From sequence record NC_070982.1: 64,000 nt of DNA. One strand, written 5' to 3'. Below, piece by piece: positions 9,781-20,306 of this stretch. The first letter of the stretch is position 1. Every line of letters starts with the position of its first letter. Origin of the DNA: Escherichia phage vB_EcoP-101114UKE3. Below the pieces are notes generated by a model that was not told the origin of the DNA, made no database searches, and worked only from the letters and a program-made list of their open reading frames with translations. Both the position numbers and the translations under genes were made by a program.

Positions 9781-12423
9781 ATGATCGTTTATAATAACCA
9801 AGCACCTGATGCAGTGAATAACGTTGGGCAGTTTGGTGCTACTGAAGGCTCTATCGGAGCTTACAAGCAAGCAGCAGAGTATGCAGCTGACTCCAAATAT
9901 TGGGCACTGTTAGCGGAGTCTAAGTTTGGTACAATTGATGACTTGATCGCTGAAGTAGAGCGTCTGTATCAACAGGGTGTTCTGATGAAGCAGGATATCG
10001 AGGATCTTAAGCAGGATTTTAAAGATCAAGATGCTCGTCTGATGAGTTTGATTGCTCAAACTAACGCAGCGGTATCAGATGCGAATAATGCTGTAGCTCT
10101 AATTAATCAGAAACTTATTGAAGTCCAGAACCAGCTTGACGTTCTGTTAGGAATGTCCGTTGATGTAACCACACTTCCTCCGGGAACTCCGGCTACTGGT
10201 TCTTTTAATCCTAACACTGGTGTAGTCTCTCTAGGTATCCCAGAAGGCGAACCCGGAAAGGATGGTTCTGTTAAGGATTTAGACACAGCTCCTACTGGTG
10301 TTCCAGAGCTAGGTGACTTGGGTTTCTATGTTGATAAAGATGACAATACCGTCCATAAAACTACTCTAGAGAATATTGCTAACTTAATCCCATCTGTTCG
10401 TTCTGTTTCTGTTAATGGGGGACCAGCTCTTGATGGAGAGGTTGCTCTAACAATCAACAAAGAGACAGTAGGTTTAGGAAATGTTCTGAATGTTGCTCAG
10501 TACAGTCGTCAAGAGATTAATGACAAATTTGACAAGACTACCAAGACATACCAATCAAAAGCAGAGGCTGATGCTGATGCTCAGTATCGTCAAGTTGGAG
10601 AGAAAGTCTTAGTTTGGGAAGCTACTAAGTATGAATTCTACACTGTTGCTGCTAACAAAACACTAACTCCTGTTAAAACTGAAGGTAGAATCCTTACCGT
10701 TAACTCCCGTTCTCCAGATTCCAGTGGTAACATTGACATTACCATTCCAACAGGAAACCCTTCTCTGTATCTTGGTGAGATGGTGATGTTCCCTTACGAC
10801 CCATCTAAGAATATCTCCTACCCAGGAGTTCTTCCTGCTGATGGTCGTCTGGTATCAAAAGAATCTGCTTCAGATTTAGGCCCATCCCTTGTCAGCGGAC
10901 AGCTCCCTGTTGTTTCAGAAACTGAATGGCAATCGGGGGCTAAACAGTACTTCTCTTGGGGCAAGTTAGCAGACGGTATTACCGATGCGGATTCTACTAA
11001 TTTTATCAACATTCGACTCCCTGATTGGACTGGAGGGGAGGCAATAAGAGCACCAGATTCTGATAAAGACTCTCAGTACAATGGGTCTGTACAGGCTCAG
11101 AAACCTTATGTTGTTACTGTAAATAACCAAGCTCCTGATGAGATTACTGGTAATGTGAACATCTCCAGATCAATTTTAGGTGCTGCTTCTTCTGGAGCAA
11201 ACTCTGACATTACATCTTTATCTGGACTCACAACACCGCTATCCATCTCTCAAGGTGGTACTGGAGCTAAAGATGCTGCTGGTGCTCGTTCTAATTTAGG
11301 TCTAGGCTCAACAGCTACCCTCAATACAATACCTGTAGCCAATGGTGGCACAGGAGCAACTACTGTTGATGTTGCTCGTTCCAATTTATCCATAGACCGA
11401 ATAGATCAAGCCTCCGGGGAGAGTAAATTATTATCCCCTAACAAAGAAACCTACCTCTTTGTGGATAACAATGGGTGGGGCTGTTATAGTACCTCAGCTG
11501 GAAGGGTTGGTGATGTGGCTCTTTCTGTTGAAAGAGGCGGTACTGGAGCTAAAAATGCTGCTAGTGCCCGATCTAACTTGGGGTTGGGGAGTGTTTCCAC
11601 TCTAGATAACGTCCCTATCGCTAGTGGTGGGACAGGGGCTGGAGATGCTGCTGGTGCAAGGTTTAATCTTGGGTTAGGTAACTCAGCCACAATGAATACC
11701 GGAACTAACAGTGATAATGTTCTTAAGGTTGGTGATTTTGGAATTGGAAGACCTGACGGCGCTCTTGTTTTTGATACTACTTCACAAGACCAACTTCTTG
11801 CTGGACTTGACACTTATGGGCTGTGTGTGTTTAGGAATAACCAACAAATAGCAGCACCTTGGGACATATGGAACTACTCCTCAAACCTTTTCTTTAGGGC
11901 GGGTGACACATATAGTATGATAAGTATTCCGTTTGAGTCTGCCGGTAAGATAAAAGTTTTTGGTGGTGCATCAGGCAGTGGGTGGAAAACCTCAAGGACG
12001 GTATATGATACTGTAAATACAACTGTTGACGTCAATGGCTTTATCAAAGCAGCGTCACCAATAGTTAAGGTATTCCATGACGGAAGTTTTGAAACAAACG
12101 AACAATCTGATGGAGTTAGTGTTAAGAAAATCTCCACCGGGGTTTATTTAATTTCAGGGTGTCTTGGTCTTAATTCTGATGCAGGGTGGGGTGGGGTAGA
12201 TGGAGGTTTTGAAATCCCAATAGACCGAAACAAACAACCTAGAGTTTGGCTTGACTATGAGGTTAAAGAGGATGGTTCTCTTTTAATTAAAACTTATCAT
12301 AGAACCCATTCAACATCCCCAGCTTTTGCTAGAAACGAGTTGGAAGGTTTTTCTGACGGAGACCCTGTTGACATTCCTAAGGATGCGTTCATTTCGGTTC
12401 GTGTTGAAATGCCTTCTAAGTAA
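9781..12423 (+). CDS. Tail fibre protein with phage tail-fibre repeats (880 aa)
   Basis: Repeated GGTGA...ARSNLGLGS units and an N-terminal coiled-coil; RBS AAGGAG. Confidence 0.7.
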   Translation: MIVYNNQAPDAVNNVGQFGATEGSIGAYKQAAEYAADSKYWALLAESKFGTIDDLIAEVERLYQQGVLMKQDIEDLKQDFKDQDARLMSLIAQTNAAVSDANNAVALINQKLIEVQNQLDVLLGMSVDVTTLPPGTPATGSFNPNTGVVSLGIPEGEPGKDGSVKDLDTAPTGVPELGDLGFYVDKDDNTVHKTTLENIANLIPSVRSVSVNGGPALDGEVALTINKETVGLGNVLNVAQYSRQEINDKFDKTTKTYQSKAEADADAQYRQVGEKVLVWEATKYEFYTVAANKTLTPVKTEGRILTVNSRSPDSSGNIDITIPTGNPSLYLGEMVMFPYDPSKNISYPGVLPADGRLVSKESASDLGPSLVSGQLPVVSETEWQSGAKQYFSWGKLADGITDADSTNFINIRLPDWTGGEAIRAPDSDKDSQYNGSVQAQKPYVVTVNNQAPDEITGNVNISRSILGAASSGANSDITSLSGLTTPLSISQGGTGAKDAAGARSNLGLGSTATLNTIPVANGGTGATTVDVARSNLSIDRIDQASGESKLLSPNKETYLFVDNNGWGCYSTSAGRVGDVALSVERGGTGAKNAASARSNLGLGSVSTLDNVPIASGGTGAGDAAGARFNLGLGNSATMNTGTNSDNVLKVGDFGIGRPDGALVFDTTSQDQLLAGLDTYGLCVFRNNQQIAAPWDIWNYSSNLFFRAGDTYSMISIPFESAGKIKVFGGASGSGWKTSRTVYDTVNTTVDVNGFIKAASPIVKVFHDGSFETNEQSDGVSVKKISTGVYLISGCLGLNSDAGWGGVDGGFEIPIDRNKQPRVWLDYEVKEDGSLLIKTYHRTHSTSPAFARNELEGFSDGDPVDIPKDAFISVRVEMPSK

Positions 12424-12432
12424 ATTAACAAT

Positions 12433-12451
12433 GCTCCCTTCGGGGAGCTTT
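12433..12451 (+). terminator. Terminator-like hairpin with UUCG loop and short U tract
   Basis: GCTCCC-TTCG-GGGAGC followed by TTT. Confidence 0.3.
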
Positions 12452-12463
12452 AAGGAGATTTTA

Positions 12464-14611
12464 ATGTCTAGAGAACTAATGCCCAAATCTGGCATAATGA
12501 TGCCTCATGTAGTTGTAACCAGAGATGCGGCTGTTGTTGGCGTTTCTACTGTAGATGGGGCCGCTGGTGCTATCAACTTAACAGAAAAATACCTTCAGAA
12601 ATCTGACGCTGAAGCAACCTATCAAACGAAAGCAGAAGGGGCTACTAAGCAATATGTAACCGACGCTATCAACCCCATTATGACAAATGCTCTTTTTAAA
12701 GATGACCCCTTTGTTAATAATGACACACCTATTCGCTCTGGCGGTGGTAATGGTGTTGAATCGGTAGATATGATTAAAGTCACCCCTGAGAACACCATCA
12801 AACTAGGGAGCTATGCTTCTTCTGTTCAGGGGGTTGAGATTCATTCTGCTGGTCGTCTTCAGGTTGTTGATCAGAATGATAGTGGTGTAGAAACTAAATA
12901 CCCTGTGTATTCTAAGCGCTATCGTCCTGAGATTGAAGATTTACCTTTTGCTGCAATCGGTTCTTATGTTAAGGATTCAAAAGGTCGTACTGTTGGTGTA
13001 ACCCGTACCGGTATCAACTCTGATATCAAACAACTTACACAGAAAGTCACTTTTACTCAACCTGTAACCGTAGCCGATGCTGTAGGCGATTATGATGCAG
13101 TGACACTGAGACAGCTTCGTAACAGTGGTGGTGGTTCTGGAGGTCCTACCATGAGTGGTATCTCGAACTTTGGTATCGGTGATTTCCACTTACGCGATAG
13201 TCGTGCTTTTATCCCAGCTTTTGAAGTAGTGTCTGATGGTCAGCTTTTGAATCGTGCTGATTATCCAGATTTGTGGGCTTATGCTCAACTGCTATCTCCA
13301 ATCGAGGATTCTCTTTGGTTATCTAACATCTACCAGAGGGGTAAATACTCTACGGGTAACGGTACAACGACTTTCCGTGTTCCTGACCGAAATGGTATTC
13401 AAGAAGGGTCTCTGAAAGCTCTGTATGGTCGTGGTGATGGTGGAGCTTCGGCTGCTAATGGTCAAATATTTGATTCTGCTGCTCCTAACATTTATGGAGA
13501 TATTGGTGGTGTTGTTGCTTATGGCCAGACTGGAGCTATTCTACGAGGTCAAGAGGAACAACCTCTCGCCCCTCAACCTTCAACTGGAAATGGTGTCTTG
13601 AGAGTTAGTTTAGACGCCTCAAAAGCAAGTCCTGTATATGGTCGTTCCACCGATGAAATCCTAACCCGTAACTTTGTTGGTGTTTGGACTATTCGTGCTC
13701 ATGGTGGTTTTACTGCTGCTAATACTTCTTGGTCTGTTGTTAACAGTGACACAAATCGTCCTCCTAAAGGAACTAAAGCTTCTAGCGGTTCTGTTGTTGC
13801 TGAATATAAAATTGGTTCAGAAGTAGAGGCTTCTACTACGCTCCAAACTGATGCTTATATCGACGGAGCTTATTATGGGATTATCAATGTTTATAATAAA
13901 ACCAAAGGAGTTACCAAGCAATTAGCTTTTGACGATTCTGGAACCCTGAACTCTGATAGATATGTTGCTCGGTTTGGGACATTGATGTCTTGGAGTGAAA
14001 CAGGAAGTCGCAGAGGGACGTTTTCTACAGACAACCAAGGGATCGGTGCTAACTACTCTTTTAACTCTATACTGAGTGCTTCCCAAGCATCCCAAGGTGG
14101 ATACAAAACTACTACCCATGTAGGGATGATTCACAATGATGCTGGAACTTTTGCTGATTCTTGTTGGCACGTAGCTGGGGATGAAGATAACAAGTATGGT
14201 TGTCGTTTAACTCTTCGACCAAACAGAAATGAGATTTATTACTACACTTGGCAGCCAAGTTCAACCGGAACTTATACTCTTGCTATGAATCCTGTATCTG
14301 ATGAAAAGTTGAAACATAACATCCAAGATATCTCTCCTGATGAAGCAATTCGTGCGATAAAAGGTTTGGATTTCAAATCGTTTGTGTACAACAATGATAA
14401 TCAAGGAAGAACTCGTCGTGGTATCATTGCACAGCAGGCAGAGAAAGTTGAACCTCTTTATGTTAAAACTCGTAAATTCCATGACAACGATGGGGTAGAG
14501 CAGGAACAGAAAGAGTTGGATGCAACTCCAATGCTTTTAGATACCATGCAGGTTGTTCAAGATCTGCTGAAGCGTATTGAAGTTCTAGAAGCGAAGTTAG
14601 CAGAGAAGTGA
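12464..14611 (+). CDS. Tail fibre or tailspike with C-terminal intramolecular chaperone (peptidase S74-like) domain (715 aa)
   Basis: ATG at 12464 with AAGGAG RBS (the ORF-track start at 12326 overlaps the previous gene); C-terminal motif VSDEKLKHNI matches the SD-x-LK-x-NI autocleavage signature. Confidence 0.7.
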   Translation: MSRELMPKSGIMMPHVVVTRDAAVVGVSTVDGAAGAINLTEKYLQKSDAEATYQTKAEGATKQYVTDAINPIMTNALFKDDPFVNNDTPIRSGGGNGVESVDMIKVTPENTIKLGSYASSVQGVEIHSAGRLQVVDQNDSGVETKYPVYSKRYRPEIEDLPFAAIGSYVKDSKGRTVGVTRTGINSDIKQLTQKVTFTQPVTVADAVGDYDAVTLRQLRNSGGGSGGPTMSGISNFGIGDFHLRDSRAFIPAFEVVSDGQLLNRADYPDLWAYAQLLSPIEDSLWLSNIYQRGKYSTGNGTTTFRVPDRNGIQEGSLKALYGRGDGGASAANGQIFDSAAPNIYGDIGGVVAYGQTGAILRGQEEQPLAPQPSTGNGVLRVSLDASKASPVYGRSTDEILTRNFVGVWTIRAHGGFTAANTSWSVVNSDTNRPPKGTKASSGSVVAEYKIGSEVEASTTLQTDAYIDGAYYGIINVYNKTKGVTKQLAFDDSGTLNSDRYVARFGTLMSWSETGSRRGTFSTDNQGIGANYSFNSILSASQASQGGYKTTTHVGMIHNDAGTFADSCWHVAGDEDNKYGCRLTLRPNRNEIYYYTWQPSSTGTYTLAMNPVSDEKLKHNIQDISPDEAIRAIKGLDFKSFVYNNDNQGRTRRGIIAQQAEKVEPLYVKTRKFHDNDGVEQEQKELDATPMLLDTMQVVQDLLKRIEVLEAKLAEK

Positions 14612-14616
14612 GATAA

Positions 14617-14636
14617 GCCCCTTCGGGGGCTTTTAG
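14617..14636 (+). terminator. Rho-independent terminator with UUCG loop
   Basis: GCCCC-TTCG-GGGGC followed by TTTT. Confidence 0.5.
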
Positions 14637-14700
14637 GAGTGAAACTGGTGAATAAGTAATGAAACTACTATATCCAAAAGGAAAATGAAAGGAGAAGAAA

Positions 14701-14919
14701 ATGAAAATGATGAAACAGGTAACTTATGGTCTAGCTTGCTTAGGGACAGGTTTTGTGATTTCCACAGCAGTACCTGTAAATGCAGTAGGCTCTCATTCTA
14801 TTATAGAAGCTCCTGTAGAGAAGCTTAGTTCTCAATGTAAACAAAGGACCATTCAAAATAATTTGGTTGTTATTTGCCCAGACGCTCAATCTTCAGCTCT
14901 GAGAAAAATTCTTCCTTAA
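14701..14919 (+). CDS. Small protein with N-terminal signal peptide or membrane anchor (72 aa); holin-like candidate
   Basis: Hydrophobic N-terminus ending VNA; RBS AAAGGAGAAG; sits directly upstream of the lysozyme. Confidence 0.4.
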   Translation: MKMMKQVTYGLACLGTGFVISTAVPVNAVGSHSIIEAPVEKLSSQCKQRTIQNNLVVICPDAQSSALRKILP

Positions 14920-14952
14920 TTGACCTAAAATAACAACAAAAGGAGGTCAAAG

Positions 14953-15444
14953 ATGGACGCTATCGCATTGCCGCCTATACAGATGAGCCTAAGTCCGGCT
15001 GGTATGGAGTTTATCATGAAGCATGAAGGCATGAGAACTAAAGCCTATAAAGACTCCGCTGGAATCTGGACTATATGTGTAGGGGCTACGCGCGATATGA
15101 ATGGGTATCCAGTAAGACAAGGATTAACGTATTCTATAGAGGATTGTCTAGCTCTGCTAGATAGAGACACACAAGACTCTGTTCGTGCTACTCAGAAAAA
15201 CATAAGAGTTCCTATGCTAGCTCATGAATTTGATGCTGTCACTTCTTTCAACTTTAATGTTGGTGGTGGTGCTTTGTCAGCTTCAAAACTTAGGAAAGTG
15301 ATCAACGGAGATGTGAAGGGTGATGTTTACTCAGAGTTCTTACGTTGGGATAAGATAACTGTTAAAGGTGTAAAGCAGCGGAGTCCGGGACTTCACAATC
15401 GCAGGGTTGCAGAAGCAAATCTATACACTACAGGAAAATATTAA
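14953..15444 (+). CDS. Lysozyme (GH24-like) (163 aa)
   Basis: Motifs KHEG, YKDSAG and WTICVG match the Glu/Asp/Thr catalytic pattern of T4-type lysozymes; RBS AAGGAGG. Confidence 0.75.
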   Translation: MDAIALPPIQMSLSPAGMEFIMKHEGMRTKAYKDSAGIWTICVGATRDMNGYPVRQGLTYSIEDCLALLDRDTQDSVRATQKNIRVPMLAHEFDAVTSFNFNVGGGALSASKLRKVINGDVKGDVYSEFLRWDKITVKGVKQRSPGLHNRRVAEANLYTTGKY

Positions 15445-15456
15445 TGGAGGTGCCTT

Positions 15457-16260
15457 TTGGCTATCGAAACAACTGCGGTAGTTACTACCGATTTAAACCC
15501 CCTATACCCACGGGACAGGGATTATCTTTATGAAGGGGCTGCCCAGATACGACTGGTCAAACAAGTATTAATTAACACCTTTCCTAACATCACAGAGCCA
15601 GTTCAACTTGACTCAGATTCTTTCAACATCTTAGCAAACAAGGTTTCCTTTACTGGAGATTCTATGGATGTTGGAGGTTTGATGATCAAAAACTTAACTC
15701 CGGGAACTGGTGATAAAGATGCTGTAACCAAAGGTCAGATGGAAGCTTTCATGTTAAACTGGATGCAGAATAAACTCTATCGTATTGGGGCTTACTATAT
15801 CACTGAAGAAGATATCAACCCCGGAGATTCTAGCTCTCTTGGTTTTGGTTCTTGGGCTAAAGTAACTGGTGTTGTTATGGGTACTGGTGTTGTTAACCCT
15901 GATGGCTCTGTTCCTAATGCTCAGCGTGTAGAGTTCCAAGCAGGTGGTACTGGTGGTCGTGTATTTAACACAATTCGTGCTGACAACATGCCTCTGACTA
16001 CAATCAATGGTTCTAGTTTTCAAGTTAGTTCTTATTCTCACTCACATAATATCACAATGGGTCGTGGAGATGCTAGTGGTCACAACAGCAGTCCTAATTG
16101 GTATAGTCCGGGTGGTGGTTATACTCAGGTAACTGACACTAACACCCACTCTCACTCAATTACAGGTTCTGTTAGTTTTGGACGTGATGATGTATCGAGA
16201 CAACCCATCAACACTTTGCCGCCTTTCAGAGCAGCGCATATCTGGAGACGTATTAGCTAA
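15457..16260 (+). CDS. Tail fibre or receptor-binding protein with His-x-His motifs (267 aa); apparent TTG start
   Basis: SHSHN and THSHS motifs, G/S/T-rich; TTG at 15457 preceded by GGAGG 6 nt upstream; no in-frame ATG near the 5' end. Confidence 0.45.
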   Translation: MAIETTAVVTTDLNPLYPRDRDYLYEGAAQIRLVKQVLINTFPNITEPVQLDSDSFNILANKVSFTGDSMDVGGLMIKNLTPGTGDKDAVTKGQMEAFMLNWMQNKLYRIGAYYITEEDINPGDSSSLGFGSWAKVTGVVMGTGVVNPDGSVPNAQRVEFQAGGTGGRVFNTIRADNMPLTTINGSSFQVSSYSHSHNITMGRGDASGHNSSPNWYSPGGGYTQVTDTNTHSHSITGSVSFGRDDVSRQPINTLPPFRAAHIWRRIS

Positions 16261-16269
16261 GGAGGAACT

Positions 16270-19200
16270 ATGGCGCTTTATCCAATAAAATCTTTAGGGG
16301 CTGTAGGGGTTATTGCTGACCAAGCTCCGACTGATTTAGCACCTAATGCTTTCACTAATGCTATCAATGCCCGCTTTGTAGAGCAAAGAGTTTTTAAGAC
16401 GGGGGGCAATGCCCCTCTTTCTTATGTAGAAGAAGATAAAGAGATTACACCACTTTCTTTTATATCAATGCCTTTTGACTACTATAGTGCAGGTAATAGC
16501 TTTCTGATTGTTGGTACAGACAAAAAGCTATACAAGCTAACAGATGAAAGTTTGACAGATATTAGCCGAAAGGTTGCTACTGTCACAAAAAGAGCTTCCG
16601 CTTCTATTAAGATATATCCGGTTGTTTCTCAGATTGTTCCTAAAGAAACTTCTATTTCAATGAATTTCAATCAAACTAAAACCTTGGAAGTTTCTATTCT
16701 TCCTGAAGATGCTAATAACACAGCTTTAGTTTGGGAGGTTAGTAATTCTTCTTATGGTAAAGTAGAAGCTGACACCGAGAACCCTAAAACTGCAACCTTG
16801 ACGTCTTATGAAAAAGAAGGGAATTTAGTAGTTACTGTATCAACAGCTGATAAATCTATTAGTGCTCAGATTGCAGTAAACATCATAGATGGTGATTCTG
16901 GTATCTTCTTAAGTCAGGATACAATAACTGTCCGCAAAGGTGGTAACACAACACTAACTGCTGTTACTGGAAAAACTCCTGTAACTTGGGTCTCTAGTAA
17001 TGCTTCTGTTGTGTCTGTAACACCTAATGCTAATACACTGACAGCTACTTTGTCTGCTAATGGTGAGGGTACTGTAACAATAACTGCTGATAACGGAACT
17101 AAGAGTGCTTCTTGTCAAATTACTGTTATACCTCAGATAGACAGTATCACTCTGAGTCAGACAAGCGTTCAAATGAGCAGGGGTACTCAGTATGTTTTAA
17201 CTGCTACGGTTAATCCTTCAGATGCTCCCAATAAAAGCATAACTTGGACTTCCTCTAATCCTGCCATTGCCACAGTTTCTGGAAATAGTACAGAAGCGGT
17301 AATAACAGGGTTACTAGCTGGGTTTACTGAAATCACAGCTGTTACTCAAGAGGGTGATAGATCAGCAACCTGTACAGTGAGAGTTGATTTAGCTGGGAGA
17401 ATGATGCGAACTTCTGCAATGGCTTTATCAGAACCTGTTGTAGATTCTATACAAGAAGAAGAAACCAATAATACTCCTATCGAATCAGAAGAGGTTTTAT
17501 ATTTTGTTAATGAGCCATCTGGAGTTGATACCTCAGGGATGTATGAAGGTAACAACTTCTATGATTACTCAAACGTCAATGATATGGAAGGTTTTGCACG
17601 AGCTGCACTTATGTCCAGCGATACTCCGTTGCAATCTTTATCACTAGATATCATCGATGCCTCTCTTGATGTTGGGGAAGATATTGTAATTACAGCCAAT
17701 GCTTTGCCTGAGGGAGAGTATTTCTATCAGTGGACAGTGGACAAAGCAGGATATGTTTCAACCACATCTACTACCGGGAAATCTCTAAAACTGACAGCTA
17801 TTCGTAAAGGTGAGATCAAAGTTACTTGTACTGCTAGTCAAATGACTCAGAAAGATTATGATGCTTTTGACGACTATCCTTGGTATCACACCATAATCTC
17901 TAACTGTGCAGTGGCTACCACTCACTATGAAACACCACAGGTCAAAGAATTTGAATCTGAGTATTTCGTAGATCTTCCGGGATGGGGTGAGCAAACAGTC
18001 GTTGATAATGATGGCAACCCTTCTGTTAAGAAATTTAACTGGAAGTGTGAGCGTATTCGTGCATTCAACAACAGACTTTTTGCTCTGAATATGAGGGAAT
18101 CTAATGCATCTGGTGTAACTACTCACTACCCTCTAAGACTTCGGTGGTCGAATTTCGCTAACGAAAACAAAGCTCCATCTCTTTGGGATGATTATGCTTA
18201 TGATCGTTTAACAACTTCAGACCTATCAGCAAACATTGTTGGTCAAACTGAGGCTTTGGAAAATGGGTACGCTGGGTATATAGATTTAGCAGATTCTAAC
18301 GGAAGCTTGATTGATGTACTTCCTCTGAAAGATTACCTTTTTGTTTACACGGAGTTCGAAACCTACATTGGTTCTCCAACCAATAACACATATCAGCCTC
18401 TTATGTTTAAGAAGCTGTTTAATGACTCTGGCATACTTGCTCCTGAGTGTGCAGTTGAAGTCGAAGGTGGACACTTCGTAGTAACTCAAAATGATGTGAT
18501 CTTACACAATGGTGCATCTAAAAAATCTATAGCATCTAACCGAGTCAAGAATCTTCTCATTAATGAGATCTGTCTAGTAAACCCTCTAGCTACTAGAGTT
18601 CACCTACACCAAGACAAGAAAGAGGTTTGGGTTTTATATGTAGGTCCGGGAGAGCCTAAAGAGAGTTTTGCTTGTAATAAAGCCGCTGTTTGGAATTATG
18701 AGTTTGACACTTGGTCTTTCCGTACAATACCATATGCTCAGTGTATTGGGTTAGTCGATCCACCAGTTCTTGAGAGAGGTCCAATCTGGGCAGATTTTCA
18801 AGAGATCACTTGGGATGATCCCTCTATTAACCAATTAGTCTGGAGAAAGGATGCTAATAACTTCCGTCAAAGGATTACAATAGTTGGCTCTTTCCTGAAA
18901 GGATTCTATCAAGTGGATGTTGGTGCTCTGGATTACATCTATGATAGAACCAACGATAGGATTATAGAAAAACCTTTAGAAATGAGGCTAGAAAGAACTG
19001 GTATTGATTTTGATAGTGTCACTAACGAGTGGAATCAAAAACATATTAATAGATTTAGACCTCAAGTCACTGGTACGGGTACCTATACTTTTGAAGTCGG
19101 TGGAAGTCAATTCTCAAACGAGTATGGACATAATCACTCAACTAAAGAGTTTAGGGTAGGCTCAGATCGTCATGTATCCGTGAGACTGAACCATCCATAC

Positions 19201-19290
19201 CTATTCTATAATGTTATAGATAATGATGTTAACAGTAATGCTTCTATGAATGGTTTAACTATAGAGTTTAGTGTTGGCGGTCGAAGATAA
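16270..19290 (+). CDS. Large virion or tail protein with multiple Ig-like (BIG2-like) domains (1006 aa)
   Basis: Several repeats of the VTW-SSN-x-VATV...TAT type; RBS AAGGAGG. Confidence 0.6.
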   Translation: MALYPIKSLGAVGVIADQAPTDLAPNAFTNAINARFVEQRVFKTGGNAPLSYVEEDKEITPLSFISMPFDYYSAGNSFLIVGTDKKLYKLTDESLTDISRKVATVTKRASASIKIYPVVSQIVPKETSISMNFNQTKTLEVSILPEDANNTALVWEVSNSSYGKVEADTENPKTATLTSYEKEGNLVVTVSTADKSISAQIAVNIIDGDSGIFLSQDTITVRKGGNTTLTAVTGKTPVTWVSSNASVVSVTPNANTLTATLSANGEGTVTITADNGTKSASCQITVIPQIDSITLSQTSVQMSRGTQYVLTATVNPSDAPNKSITWTSSNPAIATVSGNSTEAVITGLLAGFTEITAVTQEGDRSATCTVRVDLAGRMMRTSAMALSEPVVDSIQEEETNNTPIESEEVLYFVNEPSGVDTSGMYEGNNFYDYSNVNDMEGFARAALMSSDTPLQSLSLDIIDASLDVGEDIVITANALPEGEYFYQWTVDKAGYVSTTSTTGKSLKLTAIRKGEIKVTCTASQMTQKDYDAFDDYPWYHTIISNCAVATTHYETPQVKEFESEYFVDLPGWGEQTVVDNDGNPSVKKFNWKCERIRAFNNRLFALNMRESNASGVTTHYPLRLRWSNFANENKAPSLWDDYAYDRLTTSDLSANIVGQTEALENGYAGYIDLADSNGSLIDVLPLKDYLFVYTEFETYIGSPTNNTYQPLMFKKLFNDSGILAPECAVEVEGGHFVVTQNDVILHNGASKKSIASNRVKNLLINEICLVNPLATRVHLHQDKKEVWVLYVGPGEPKESFACNKAAVWNYEFDTWSFRTIPYAQCIGLVDPPVLERGPIWADFQEITWDDPSINQLVWRKDANNFRQRITIVGSFLKGFYQVDVGALDYIYDRTNDRIIEKPLEMRLERTGIDFDSVTNEWNQKHINRFRPQVTGTGTYTFEVGGSQFSNEYGHNHSTKEFRVGSDRHVSVRLNHPYLFYNVIDNDVNSNASMNGLTIEFSVGGRR

Positions 19291-19296
19291 CAAATA

Positions 19297-19322
19297 GGGG
19301 CTTCGGCCCCTTTTATTGTTTT
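19297..19322 (+). terminator. Rho-independent terminator with UUCG loop
   Basis: GGGGC-TTCG-GCCCC followed by TTTTATTGTTTTT. Confidence 0.55.
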
Positions 19323-19337
19323 TAATTGGAGGTACTT

Positions 19338-20306
19338 ATGGGTGCTGGAGGTTTTCGAAAGAATACTGGTAGAAACAACACCACACTTCCGTACAATGTT
19401 GGTTTTCTAAACAATGTGCAGGATACAGAAACTTACAACGTTGCCGTCTATGATGAACTACAAAAAGTTAGTACAGCAACTAATCAGATGTTTCAAGCCA
19501 TTGATGAAATACATGAAGAAATTGATGTTAGGATTAAAGCTCTTAATGCAATGAATCTTCAATTTGATGAACTTGAAAACAGAATTACTACAGAGATCGA
19601 AACAGCTATTGCTGATATTCAAACACAGATGGGCAATCTGTCCACTGAAGATATTTGGGATAATTCAGTACAACCGCCAGTTAAGCTAGAAAGTTCTATG
19701 GCAGGGTTTAAAACTTCTATAGAAGGTAATGAGGTTAAGATACAATCTGTTGAGGGAATCGTAAACCAGCAGGGAGAGGAAATTGGCTTAGTTCAAACAG
19801 AGATCTCTAATATCAATAGCAGCCTATCTTCTTATATGAAGCTATCTGACTACGAGGCTACGTGGGGGGTTAACTCAAATGTCAACGGTAGGTATGCTGG
19901 TGTCAAACTAACTAACAATGGCACGAACAGTCAGTTCCAAGTTACGGCTGATAAGTTTGTTGTGGGTGACGGTAACTCAGGTAATACACCTTTTGTGTTT
20001 GAAGGAGGTCGAGCTAAGATAGAGTTTGCTGATATTAAGAATGTCAATATCACAACTGCTCAGATTGCTAATGCTCGTATCCAGTTTGCTCAGATAGATA
20101 ACGTGTGGATTACTGATGGTCAGATTGCCAATCTTACAGCTAACAAGATCACTGCTGGCTCTATGTCCGGTTCTAACTGGAGACTTACAGTAGGTGGAGA
20201 TTTTGTAATGGGTGGTACAGGCGGTTCTCAGTTATGGATGAACGGTAATAGAATAGATTTTTATGATGGGAGTGGAACTCTTCGCATAAGAATAGGGAGT
20301 TGGTAA
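19338..20306 (+). CDS. Tail or virion structural protein with coiled-coil N-terminus (322 aa)
   Basis: ATG at 19338 with GGAGG RBS; position in the tail module. Confidence 0.5.
   Translation: MGAGGFRKNTGRNNTTLPYNVGFLNNVQDTETYNVAVYDELQKVSTATNQMFQAIDEIHEEIDVRIKALNAMNLQFDELENRITTEIETAIADIQTQMGNLSTEDIWDNSVQPPVKLESSMAGFKTSIEGNEVKIQSVEGIVNQQGEEIGLVQTEISNINSSLSSYMKLSDYEATWGVNSNVNGRYAGVKLTNNGTNSQFQVTADKFVVGDGNSGNTPFVFEGGRAKIEFADIKNVNITTAQIANARIQFAQIDNVWITDGQIANLTANKITAGSMSGSNWRLTVGGDFVMGGTGGSQLWMNGNRIDFYDGSGTLRIRIGSW

Follow-up and report, generated by a model that had tools for sequence, protein, structure and literature searches.

An open reading frame on the plus strand of Escherichia phage vB_EcoP-101114UKE3 (NC_070982.1; the 64,000-nucleotide stretch analysed here is called the window) raises three questions: which virion protein it encodes, where its translation begins, and what two His-x-His (HxH) motifs in its C-terminal part are for. 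A preliminary description of the locus had proposed a tail fibre that starts at a TTG codon and carries, near its C-terminus, motifs reminiscent of the metal-coordinating HxH repeats of some fibre tips. Considered as a whole, the best explanation of our data is a short tail fibre of the SU10 type with a TTG start and a His6-clamped tip, and we regard this reading as highly probable. Several of its elements are already known: a 2022 paper (PMC9509320) describes the protein itself, its place on the virion, its nozzle-forming role and the His pairs as putative Fe2+ ligands. The features of the locus are collected in Table 1.

Table 1. Features of the short tail fibre locus and its neighbours, with positions in the window.
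Feature	Position	Strand	Basis or remark
Endolysin gene	14953..15444	+	Pfam Phage_lysozyme 9.6e-31; phrog_7 endolysin
Shine-Dalgarno GGAGG	15446..15450	+	6-nt spacer (TGCCTT) to TTG
TTG initiation codon	15457..15459	+	first possible start past in-frame stop
Short tail fibre gene, orthologue of SU10 gp16	15457..16260	+	267 aa plus stop (TAA)
Proximal helical domain, residues 1-98, docks on nozzle protein	15457..15750	+	boundaries from SU10 structure (PMC9509320)
Central T4 gp10/gp12-like domain, residues ~104-186	15766..16014	+	Pfam Gp10_C; hhalign to T4 gp10
HxH site 1, His195-Ser-His197 (SHSHN)	16039..16047	+	invariant in 25/25 relatives
Hypervariable distal tip between HxH motifs, residues 198-230, presumed receptor loop	16048..16146	+	column entropy
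HxH site 2, His231-Ser-His233 (THSHS)	16147..16155	+	in 24/25 relatives
Conserved C-terminal strand, residues 245-267 (…QPINTLPPFRAAHIWRRIS), back to central domain	16189..16257	+	lowest entropy, 0.60 bits
Nozzle protein gene, SU10 gp17 orthologue	16270..19290	+	phrog_14417 E=0; three Big_2 domains
Nozzle fibre-dock loop, Trp840/848/858 (SU10 Trp839/847/857)	18787..18843	+	computed positions; role from PMC9509320
Terminator-like GC hairpin AGGGGCTTCGGCCCCT then T-run, closing fibre-nozzle unit	19296..19311 (T-run to ~19320)	+	hairpin scan and sequence

The gene encodes a short tail fibre

Megablast of positions 14900-16400 returned 100% identity to Escherichia phages MLP3 and vB_EcoP-101114BS3 and 99.7% to SU7, which belongs to the genus Suseptimavirus of the Gordonclarkvirinae; the ~1.5 kb around the gene are 81% identical to phiEco32. 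At the protein level, comparison with the SU10 genome gave 82.8% identity. When PDB sequences were searched with phmmer, the entire product aligned without gaps to chain 7z47_I (residues 1-267 on 1-267, E=1e-156, ~83% identity), a chain named 'putative structural protein' in entries 7Z47, 7Z4B and 7Z4F. They come from the study of the SU10 tail by Siborova et al. 2022, in which the chain is gp16, the short tail fibre (PMC9509320). Likewise, the product matches the full profile of phrog_6465 (3e-107) and Pfam PF21939, Gp10_C (1.1e-9; 39.8 bits, the cut-off being 27 bits; residues 105-266 cover profile positions 3-139 of 139), and an NCBIfam search gave no match. Judged by these alignments, the protein belongs both to the SU10 gp16 family and to Gp10_C. 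The phage is a podophage of the Gordonclarkvirinae (phiEco32/SU10/SU7-like) and this gene specifies its short tail fibre; the tail fibre proposed earlier is indeed an orthologue of the short fibre that cryo-EM shows on the SU10 virion. The BASEL study described the family as a conserved second receptor-binding protein of the Gordonclarkvirinae (PMC11990801).

Public annotation of the gene is uneven. The identical protein at NCBI, from phage 4E8, is labelled 'baseplate', and many other GenBank records name the gene 'baseplate' or 'hypothetical'. Under a full-length tblastn match the gene is unannotated in MG983840 (myPSH1131), MN715356 (EcoN5), PV591328 (EcP-vB) and OR296290 (SDYTW1-F1-2-2_3), where gene callers probably missed it because of its TTG start. 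The practical value of the present work lies in annotation, since the start-codon tally and the conservation map given below justify a confident 'short tail fibre' call. Its weight for discovery is small, as the main facts on this fibre were published in 2022 (PMC9509320).

An exhaustive profile search recovered 1875 cluster representatives (50% identity) at E up to 1e-3, so that the family is far larger than the cultured phages suggest. The best 150 of the 1875 were listed and 149 retrieved; among these, 124 representatives of 240-300 aa with mutual identity <=50% form the deep set used below. In several larger proteins among the listed matches (e.g. 588 and 412 aa), similarity is confined to the N-terminal 60-100 residues.

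Translation is expected to begin at a TTG codon

We examined where the ORF can start. The closest in-frame stop on its 5' side is the TAA at 15442-15444, shared with the endolysin gene and ending 12 nt before the TTG; therefore the ORF cannot extend further upstream. From that stop to codon 70 there is no ATG or GTG, and past the first TTG the frame next offers an ATG at codon 70 (nt 15664), followed by TTG and ATG at codons 75 and 76. The preliminary description held that the frame contains no in-frame ATG: taken literally this is incorrect, as eight are present, but it is true of the stretch between the upstream stop and codon 70. Its other statements on the frame, namely the extent of the ORF, the TTG start and GGAGG 6 nt upstream, are all borne out by the sequence. 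TTG is a legitimate initiator, weaker, and is read as fMet.

Comparison of relatives supports the TTG. We tallied the codon homologous to the start in 24 loci drawn from IMG/VR (5 loci), GenBank phage records and Logan contigs, a tally that is new in this analysis. The codon is TTG in 14 loci and ATG in 10; no other codon occurs there in the 24 loci examined. TTG is found in the window, SU7, ECBP2, phiEco32, two IMG/VR genomes, SU10, ES17, myPSH1131, XT73, 1-6bf, Bas94 and Paul, and also in a 54%-identical metagenomic relative whose upstream gene differs. ATG is found in KBNP1711, EP335, EK010, three metagenomic relatives and four distant homologues (Grimontviridae/Lahexavirus) from Salmonella phage PKM.Hi.22.6, Cronobacter phage A24, Aeromonas phage LAh_6 and Proteus phage J3S. 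EK010 starts with ATG, yet its 30 nt upstream are nearly identical to those of the window, TAATGGAGGTGCCTT included. This toggling between TTG and ATG supports a start codon, because an ordinary internal Leu codon should drift to CTN or TTA. The GGAGG is kept in all TTG-start relatives and is annotated as a ribosome-binding site in SU7 and Paul.

An alternative is that the true start is an internal ATG at codon 70 or 76, which would give a product of ~190-200 aa and leave the TTG-proximal part untranslated. ATG76 (nt 15682) does have GGAGG 4 nt upstream, at 15673-15677, and several GenBank records lack an annotation of the gene. This internal GGAGG resembles a start signal, however, only because the conserved Val-Gly-Gly codons happen to form it. 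Codons 1-69 are kept as protein, with several invariant residues, and comparison with SU10 over codons 2-69 gave 28 synonymous and 17 non-synonymous codon differences, an excess indicating purifying selection on the very segment that an internal start would lose. Furthermore, residues 1-98 of SU10 gp16 were built into a 3.8 Å map, where residues 3-6 and 23-25 make the attachment contacts (PMC9509320), and a product devoid of residues 1-69 would be unable to dock on the nozzle. Given these data and the restriction of the homologous codon to TTG and ATG, we consider an internal start almost certainly wrong. Since the SU10 gene too begins with TTG and residues 1-98 of its product lie in density, TTG initiation is as good as demonstrated for the SU10 orthologue. 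For that orthologue, the possibility that the protein is absent from virions or initiates elsewhere has thus already been answered in the negative.

We searched the surroundings of the start for additional signals. Folding of the RNA at 15425-15505 gave z=-0.23, with no special structure that would hide or expose the TTG. A perfect 6-bp palindrome, CGGTAG-TTA-CTACCG, is located at 15476-15490 (fibre codons 7-12); in the MFE fold it pairs into a small hairpin, but the regional energy is not better than that of shuffled sequence. Scanning 14500-19500 for sigma-70 promoters gave 12 sites vs 12.2 expected by chance, a count that lends no support to a promoter of the fibre gene's own. The output of a start-codon caller applied to the window was noisy, with for instance the start of the long-fibre gene mis-called, and could not serve to quantify TTG usage; with that noise, it suggests only that the fibre gene is the one clear TTG start among window ORFs of at least 150 aa. 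The long-fibre ORF as mechanically delimited opens at TTG 12326, which is not its true start: the ATG annotated in SU7 corresponds to ~12464, and residue 47 is the first covered by the phrog match.

Gene neighbourhood and translational coupling

The order endolysin, short fibre and Big_2 nozzle is shared by SU7, SU10 and ES17, as well as by metagenomic relatives that are 70% and 59% identical. In relatives at 51-54% identity the fibre-nozzle pair is kept and small ORFs without Pfam matches stand in place of the upstream lysozyme; the metagenomic relatives L023 and L024 have their lysozyme slot filled in this manner. The nozzle gene of the window, encoding 1006 aa, begins 10 nt past the fibre stop, and its Shine-Dalgarno sequence (AAGGAGG) overlaps the fibre stop codon.

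The short distance from the endolysin stop, together with the overlapping stop before the nozzle gene, suggests translational coupling along endolysin, fibre and nozzle. Translation of the fibre begins at the TTG by means of the upstream GGAGG and is probably coupled to termination of the endolysin. A more adventurous thought is that the weak TTG is a selected dosage device, placed right after the endolysin stop. It draws on the retention of TTG in most of the subfamily and on its recurrence in the 54%-identical relative with another upstream gene; synthesis of the short fibre might then be throttled and follow the translation of the lysis cassette instead of that of the other tail genes. We think this improbable, and hold the same of a related reading, in which the two His6 sites might form a fixed metal-clamped scaffold that lets the 33-residue tip (198-230) diverge freely.

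Other features of the cluster are recorded here as observations. The lysis cassette (holin 14701..14919 and the endolysin) is located inside the tail-fibre cluster, between the genes for the long-fibre distal subunit and the short fibre. At its C-terminus the distal subunit (12326-14611) has a Peptidase_S74 intramolecular-chaperone domain (8.7e-13), and it also matches Phage Tail Collar weakly. On the far side of the nozzle gene, the strong hairpin and T-run at 19296-19320 separate it from the tail-needle gene, whose ATG lies at ~19338 with its own GGAGG.

The proximal domain and docking on the nozzle

It is documented by cryo-EM that six gp16 trimers of SU10 sit on the hexameric nozzle protein gp17. 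Residues 3-6 of gp16 contact nozzle domain 4, and each chain clamps the dock loop with its Tyr23-Ile24-Tyr25; Trp839/847/857 of this loop form a pseudo-threefold star (PMC9509320). The fibre of the window has Tyr23-Leu24-Tyr25 at the clamp. The presence of Tyr23-x-Tyr25 in the fibre and of Trp840/848/858 in the nozzle protein indicates, at the level of sequence, that the docking partnership is conserved. During SU10 infection the fibres swing by ~135 degrees and take up places between nozzle proteins that have straightened, forming a nozzle of ~28 nm (277 Å), and tomography places the fibre tips at the cell surface (PMC9509320).

The N-terminal module was also detected in the Pa223 tail fibre 9NXK, both by profile search (E=3.3e-9) and by Foldseek (E=2.7e-3). 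Together with the larger proteins mentioned above, this match suggests that the N-terminal 60-100 residues are a reusable fibre-attachment module.

A central domain related to T4 gp10

An hhalign comparison of the family profile with T4 gp10 placed fibre residues 104-186 on gp10 450-540 (probability 81%, E=1.2e-5). Comparison with T4 gp12 was not significant, nor was that with T4 gp37 residues 810-1026 (probability 4.8%). Trp263 and Arg265, in the C-terminal strand, are nearly invariant among the 124 deep representatives. By eye only, a likeness is seen between this strand (…NTLPPFRAAHIWRRIS) and the C-termini of gp10 (NIQPYITVYRWIRIA), gp12 and gp37 (NIAFNYIVRLA). Residues ~104-186 and the C-terminal strand would form one gp10/gp12-like domain, from which a beta-hairpin 'needle' (~187-244) is predicted to project.

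An AF2 monomer computed on a 25-sequence alignment reached pLDDT 54.5 and pTM 0.32. So poor a score is expected for an intertwined trimer, and we took only secondary structure from the model. It places the HxH motifs on two long strands, 190-200 and 223-233; the geometry of the trimer lies beyond a monomer. For SU10 itself, the central and tip domains were modelled with AlphaFold-multimer and then placed in maps of 7 Å and 15 Å (PMC9509320). Foldseek of our low-confidence model against the PDB returned 7z4f (E=1.6e-19; sequence-driven, TM 0.11) and weak matches to the Pa223 fibre, to 2fkk, which is T4 gp10 (E=0.04), and to 6ov6 (E about 3); 2xgf was absent from this search, and we gave its matches no weight as evidence on structure. 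Neither 2XGF nor 6OV6 appeared in a profile search of the PDB at E up to 10.

Two conserved HxH pairs as putative metal sites

The two motifs described earlier as lying near the C-terminus, SHSHN and THSHS, are real and span residues 195-233 of 267. They contain four of the six His residues of the protein. In 200,000 sequence shuffles, two or more HxH occurred in 0.4% (P=0.004), which makes a chance origin of the pair unlikely; the matter is settled by conservation.

We followed the motifs through 25 relatives, down to 51% identity. The one relative without the second HxH at the aligned position, P0025, has other HxH motifs. The middle residue is variable, being S, A, R, N, H, V, T or E at site 1 and S, T, D, G, K or Q at site 2. 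Fixed His residues around a free middle residue fit a beta-strand on which the His face one way and the middle residue the other. In the deep set of 124, His is found at 195, 197, 231 and 233 in 94, 94, 95 and 82 representatives (66-77%), and 118 have at least one HxH. The distant full-length homologue of Salmonella phage PKM.Hi.22.6 (31% identity; Grimontviridae; L009:3001-3867) keeps both sites. Its His residues form three clusters, PAHAHGH, AHQH and AHEH, and PAHAHGH stands at the position of T4 gp12 HKH445-447. Kuravirus-type fibres have MPLTTING there instead and have lost this first His site.

The authors of the SU10 study noted both His pairs and proposed that they 'may bind' Fe2+, as in T4 gp37 and JUB59; the words 'zinc' and 'metal' are absent from the main text of their paper (PMC9509320). 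The paper numbers the pairs 194/196 and 230/232, whereas the PDB 7Z47 chain and the SU10 genome (L007:1501-2301) give 195/197 and 231/233. The published His numbering is off by one, as Tyr23-Ile24-Tyr25 fits Met1 numbering. His6 sites built from HxH are known with Fe in T4 gp37, P2 gpV, the phi92 spike and R-pyocin fibres (PMC6116203; see PMC11705849), and with Zn in the equivalent site of T4 gp12 (PMC6116203).

From the motif pattern it is plausible that the HxH pairs are metal ligands. His195 and His197 of the three chains would form one octahedral His6 metal site (Fe2+ or Zn2+), His231 and His233 of the three chains would form a second, and together they would grip the hypervariable tip (198-230) at its base.

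The pairs might instead bind no metal and be kept for another reason, such as trimer-core stacking, hydrogen-bonding or pH sensing. In SU10 gp16 no metal was observed or measured (PMC9509320), and the metal-containing tips 2XGF and 6OV6 have no significant sequence or fold match to the fibre. T4 gp10, the best-supported distant homologue, is without any HxH, and His233 is replaced by Pro in 16 of the 124 deep representatives. Against this, every solved trimeric fibre or spike with axial HxH in PMC6116203 holds Fe or Zn in a His6 site, and the pattern of fixed His and free middle residue, together with the two long strands, fits His6 geometry. A metal-free role for the pairs is, in our judgement, quite unlikely.

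A hypervariable tip between the two HxH sites

Column entropy reveals a sharp division of the protein. The mean is 2.22 bits over residues 198-230 and 0.6-0.9 bits over residues 1-189 and 245-267. This pattern fits a distal loop, presumed to contact the receptor, held between two conserved clamps. The tip would presumably touch the terminal receptor, which by analogy is probably a conserved feature of the LPS core. Receptor binding by the short fibre is predicted.

We considered whether the protein could be mainly a structural wall of the extended nozzle, a 'baseplate protein' whose tip recognises no receptor. That is how many GenBank records label the gene; its Pfam match is the T4 baseplate protein gp10, and the SU10 fibre alternates with nozzle proteins to build the nozzle in a paper that calls receptor binding only 'predicted' (PMC9509320). 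The protein is also highly conserved across the subfamily, with 163/267 identical sites (PMC11990801). Such conservation, however, is also compatible with a conserved receptor in the LPS core, as in the case of T4 gp12. Variability peaks precisely in the distal tip flanked by the HxH motifs, as expected of a surface contact, and it is the fibre tips that SU10 tomography finds at the cell surface (PMC9509320). Roles in the wall and in receptor binding are not mutually exclusive. We consider a mainly structural protein with no receptor recognition unlikely.

The conservation map singles out residues 198-230 for work that re-engineers or compares terminal-receptor specificity among therapeutic kuravirus-like phages. 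If the metal-clamped scaffold were true, the same residues would be the minimal engineerable receptor-binding cassette.

Comparison with known systems

The closest known system is SU10 gp16. Both proteins have 267 aa, a TTG start with a Shine-Dalgarno sequence, the endolysin upstream and the nozzle protein downstream, and they share the dock-clamp Tyr23-x-Tyr25 and both HxH pairs at the same positions. They differ by 45 substitutions, e.g. Ile24 to Leu and THSHN to SHSHN, and nothing differs in kind. The genus differs, the window phage being Suseptimavirus-like and SU10 a Kuravirus.

The Pseudomonas phage Pa223 fibre (9NXK) has homologous N-terminal 60-65 residues, a podophage-fibre attachment module. 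The rest of this 215-aa protein is unalignable, and it has no HxH pair at the equivalent place.

Likeness to T4 gp10 (2FKK, PF21939) resides in residues ~104-186 and the C-terminal strand, which appear homologous. T4 gp10 and gp12 differ in being myovirus baseplate proteins of 602 and 527 aa with unrelated N-terminal parts. In gp12 the HKH motif (445-447), whose His6 site holds Zn, follows a GG…MP-like segment (PMC6116203), whereas the HxH pairs of the fibre are on the inserted needle and not at the gp12 HKH position. Among the T4 proteins, gp10 has no HxH, gp12 one and gp37 seven.

In the trimeric fibre tips of T4 gp37 (2XGF) and Bizionia phage JUB59 C24 (6OV6), strands that run outwards and back carry HxH motifs, which build His6-Fe2+ sites on the axis, and the SU10 authors found that their gp16 tip model structurally resembles both (PMC9509320). 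T4 gp37 differs in having its seven HxH within residues 883-998, as against two in the fibre. By analogy, the fibre probably works like the His6 metal sites of gp37 and gp12 in principle, and not as a demonstrated member of their family.
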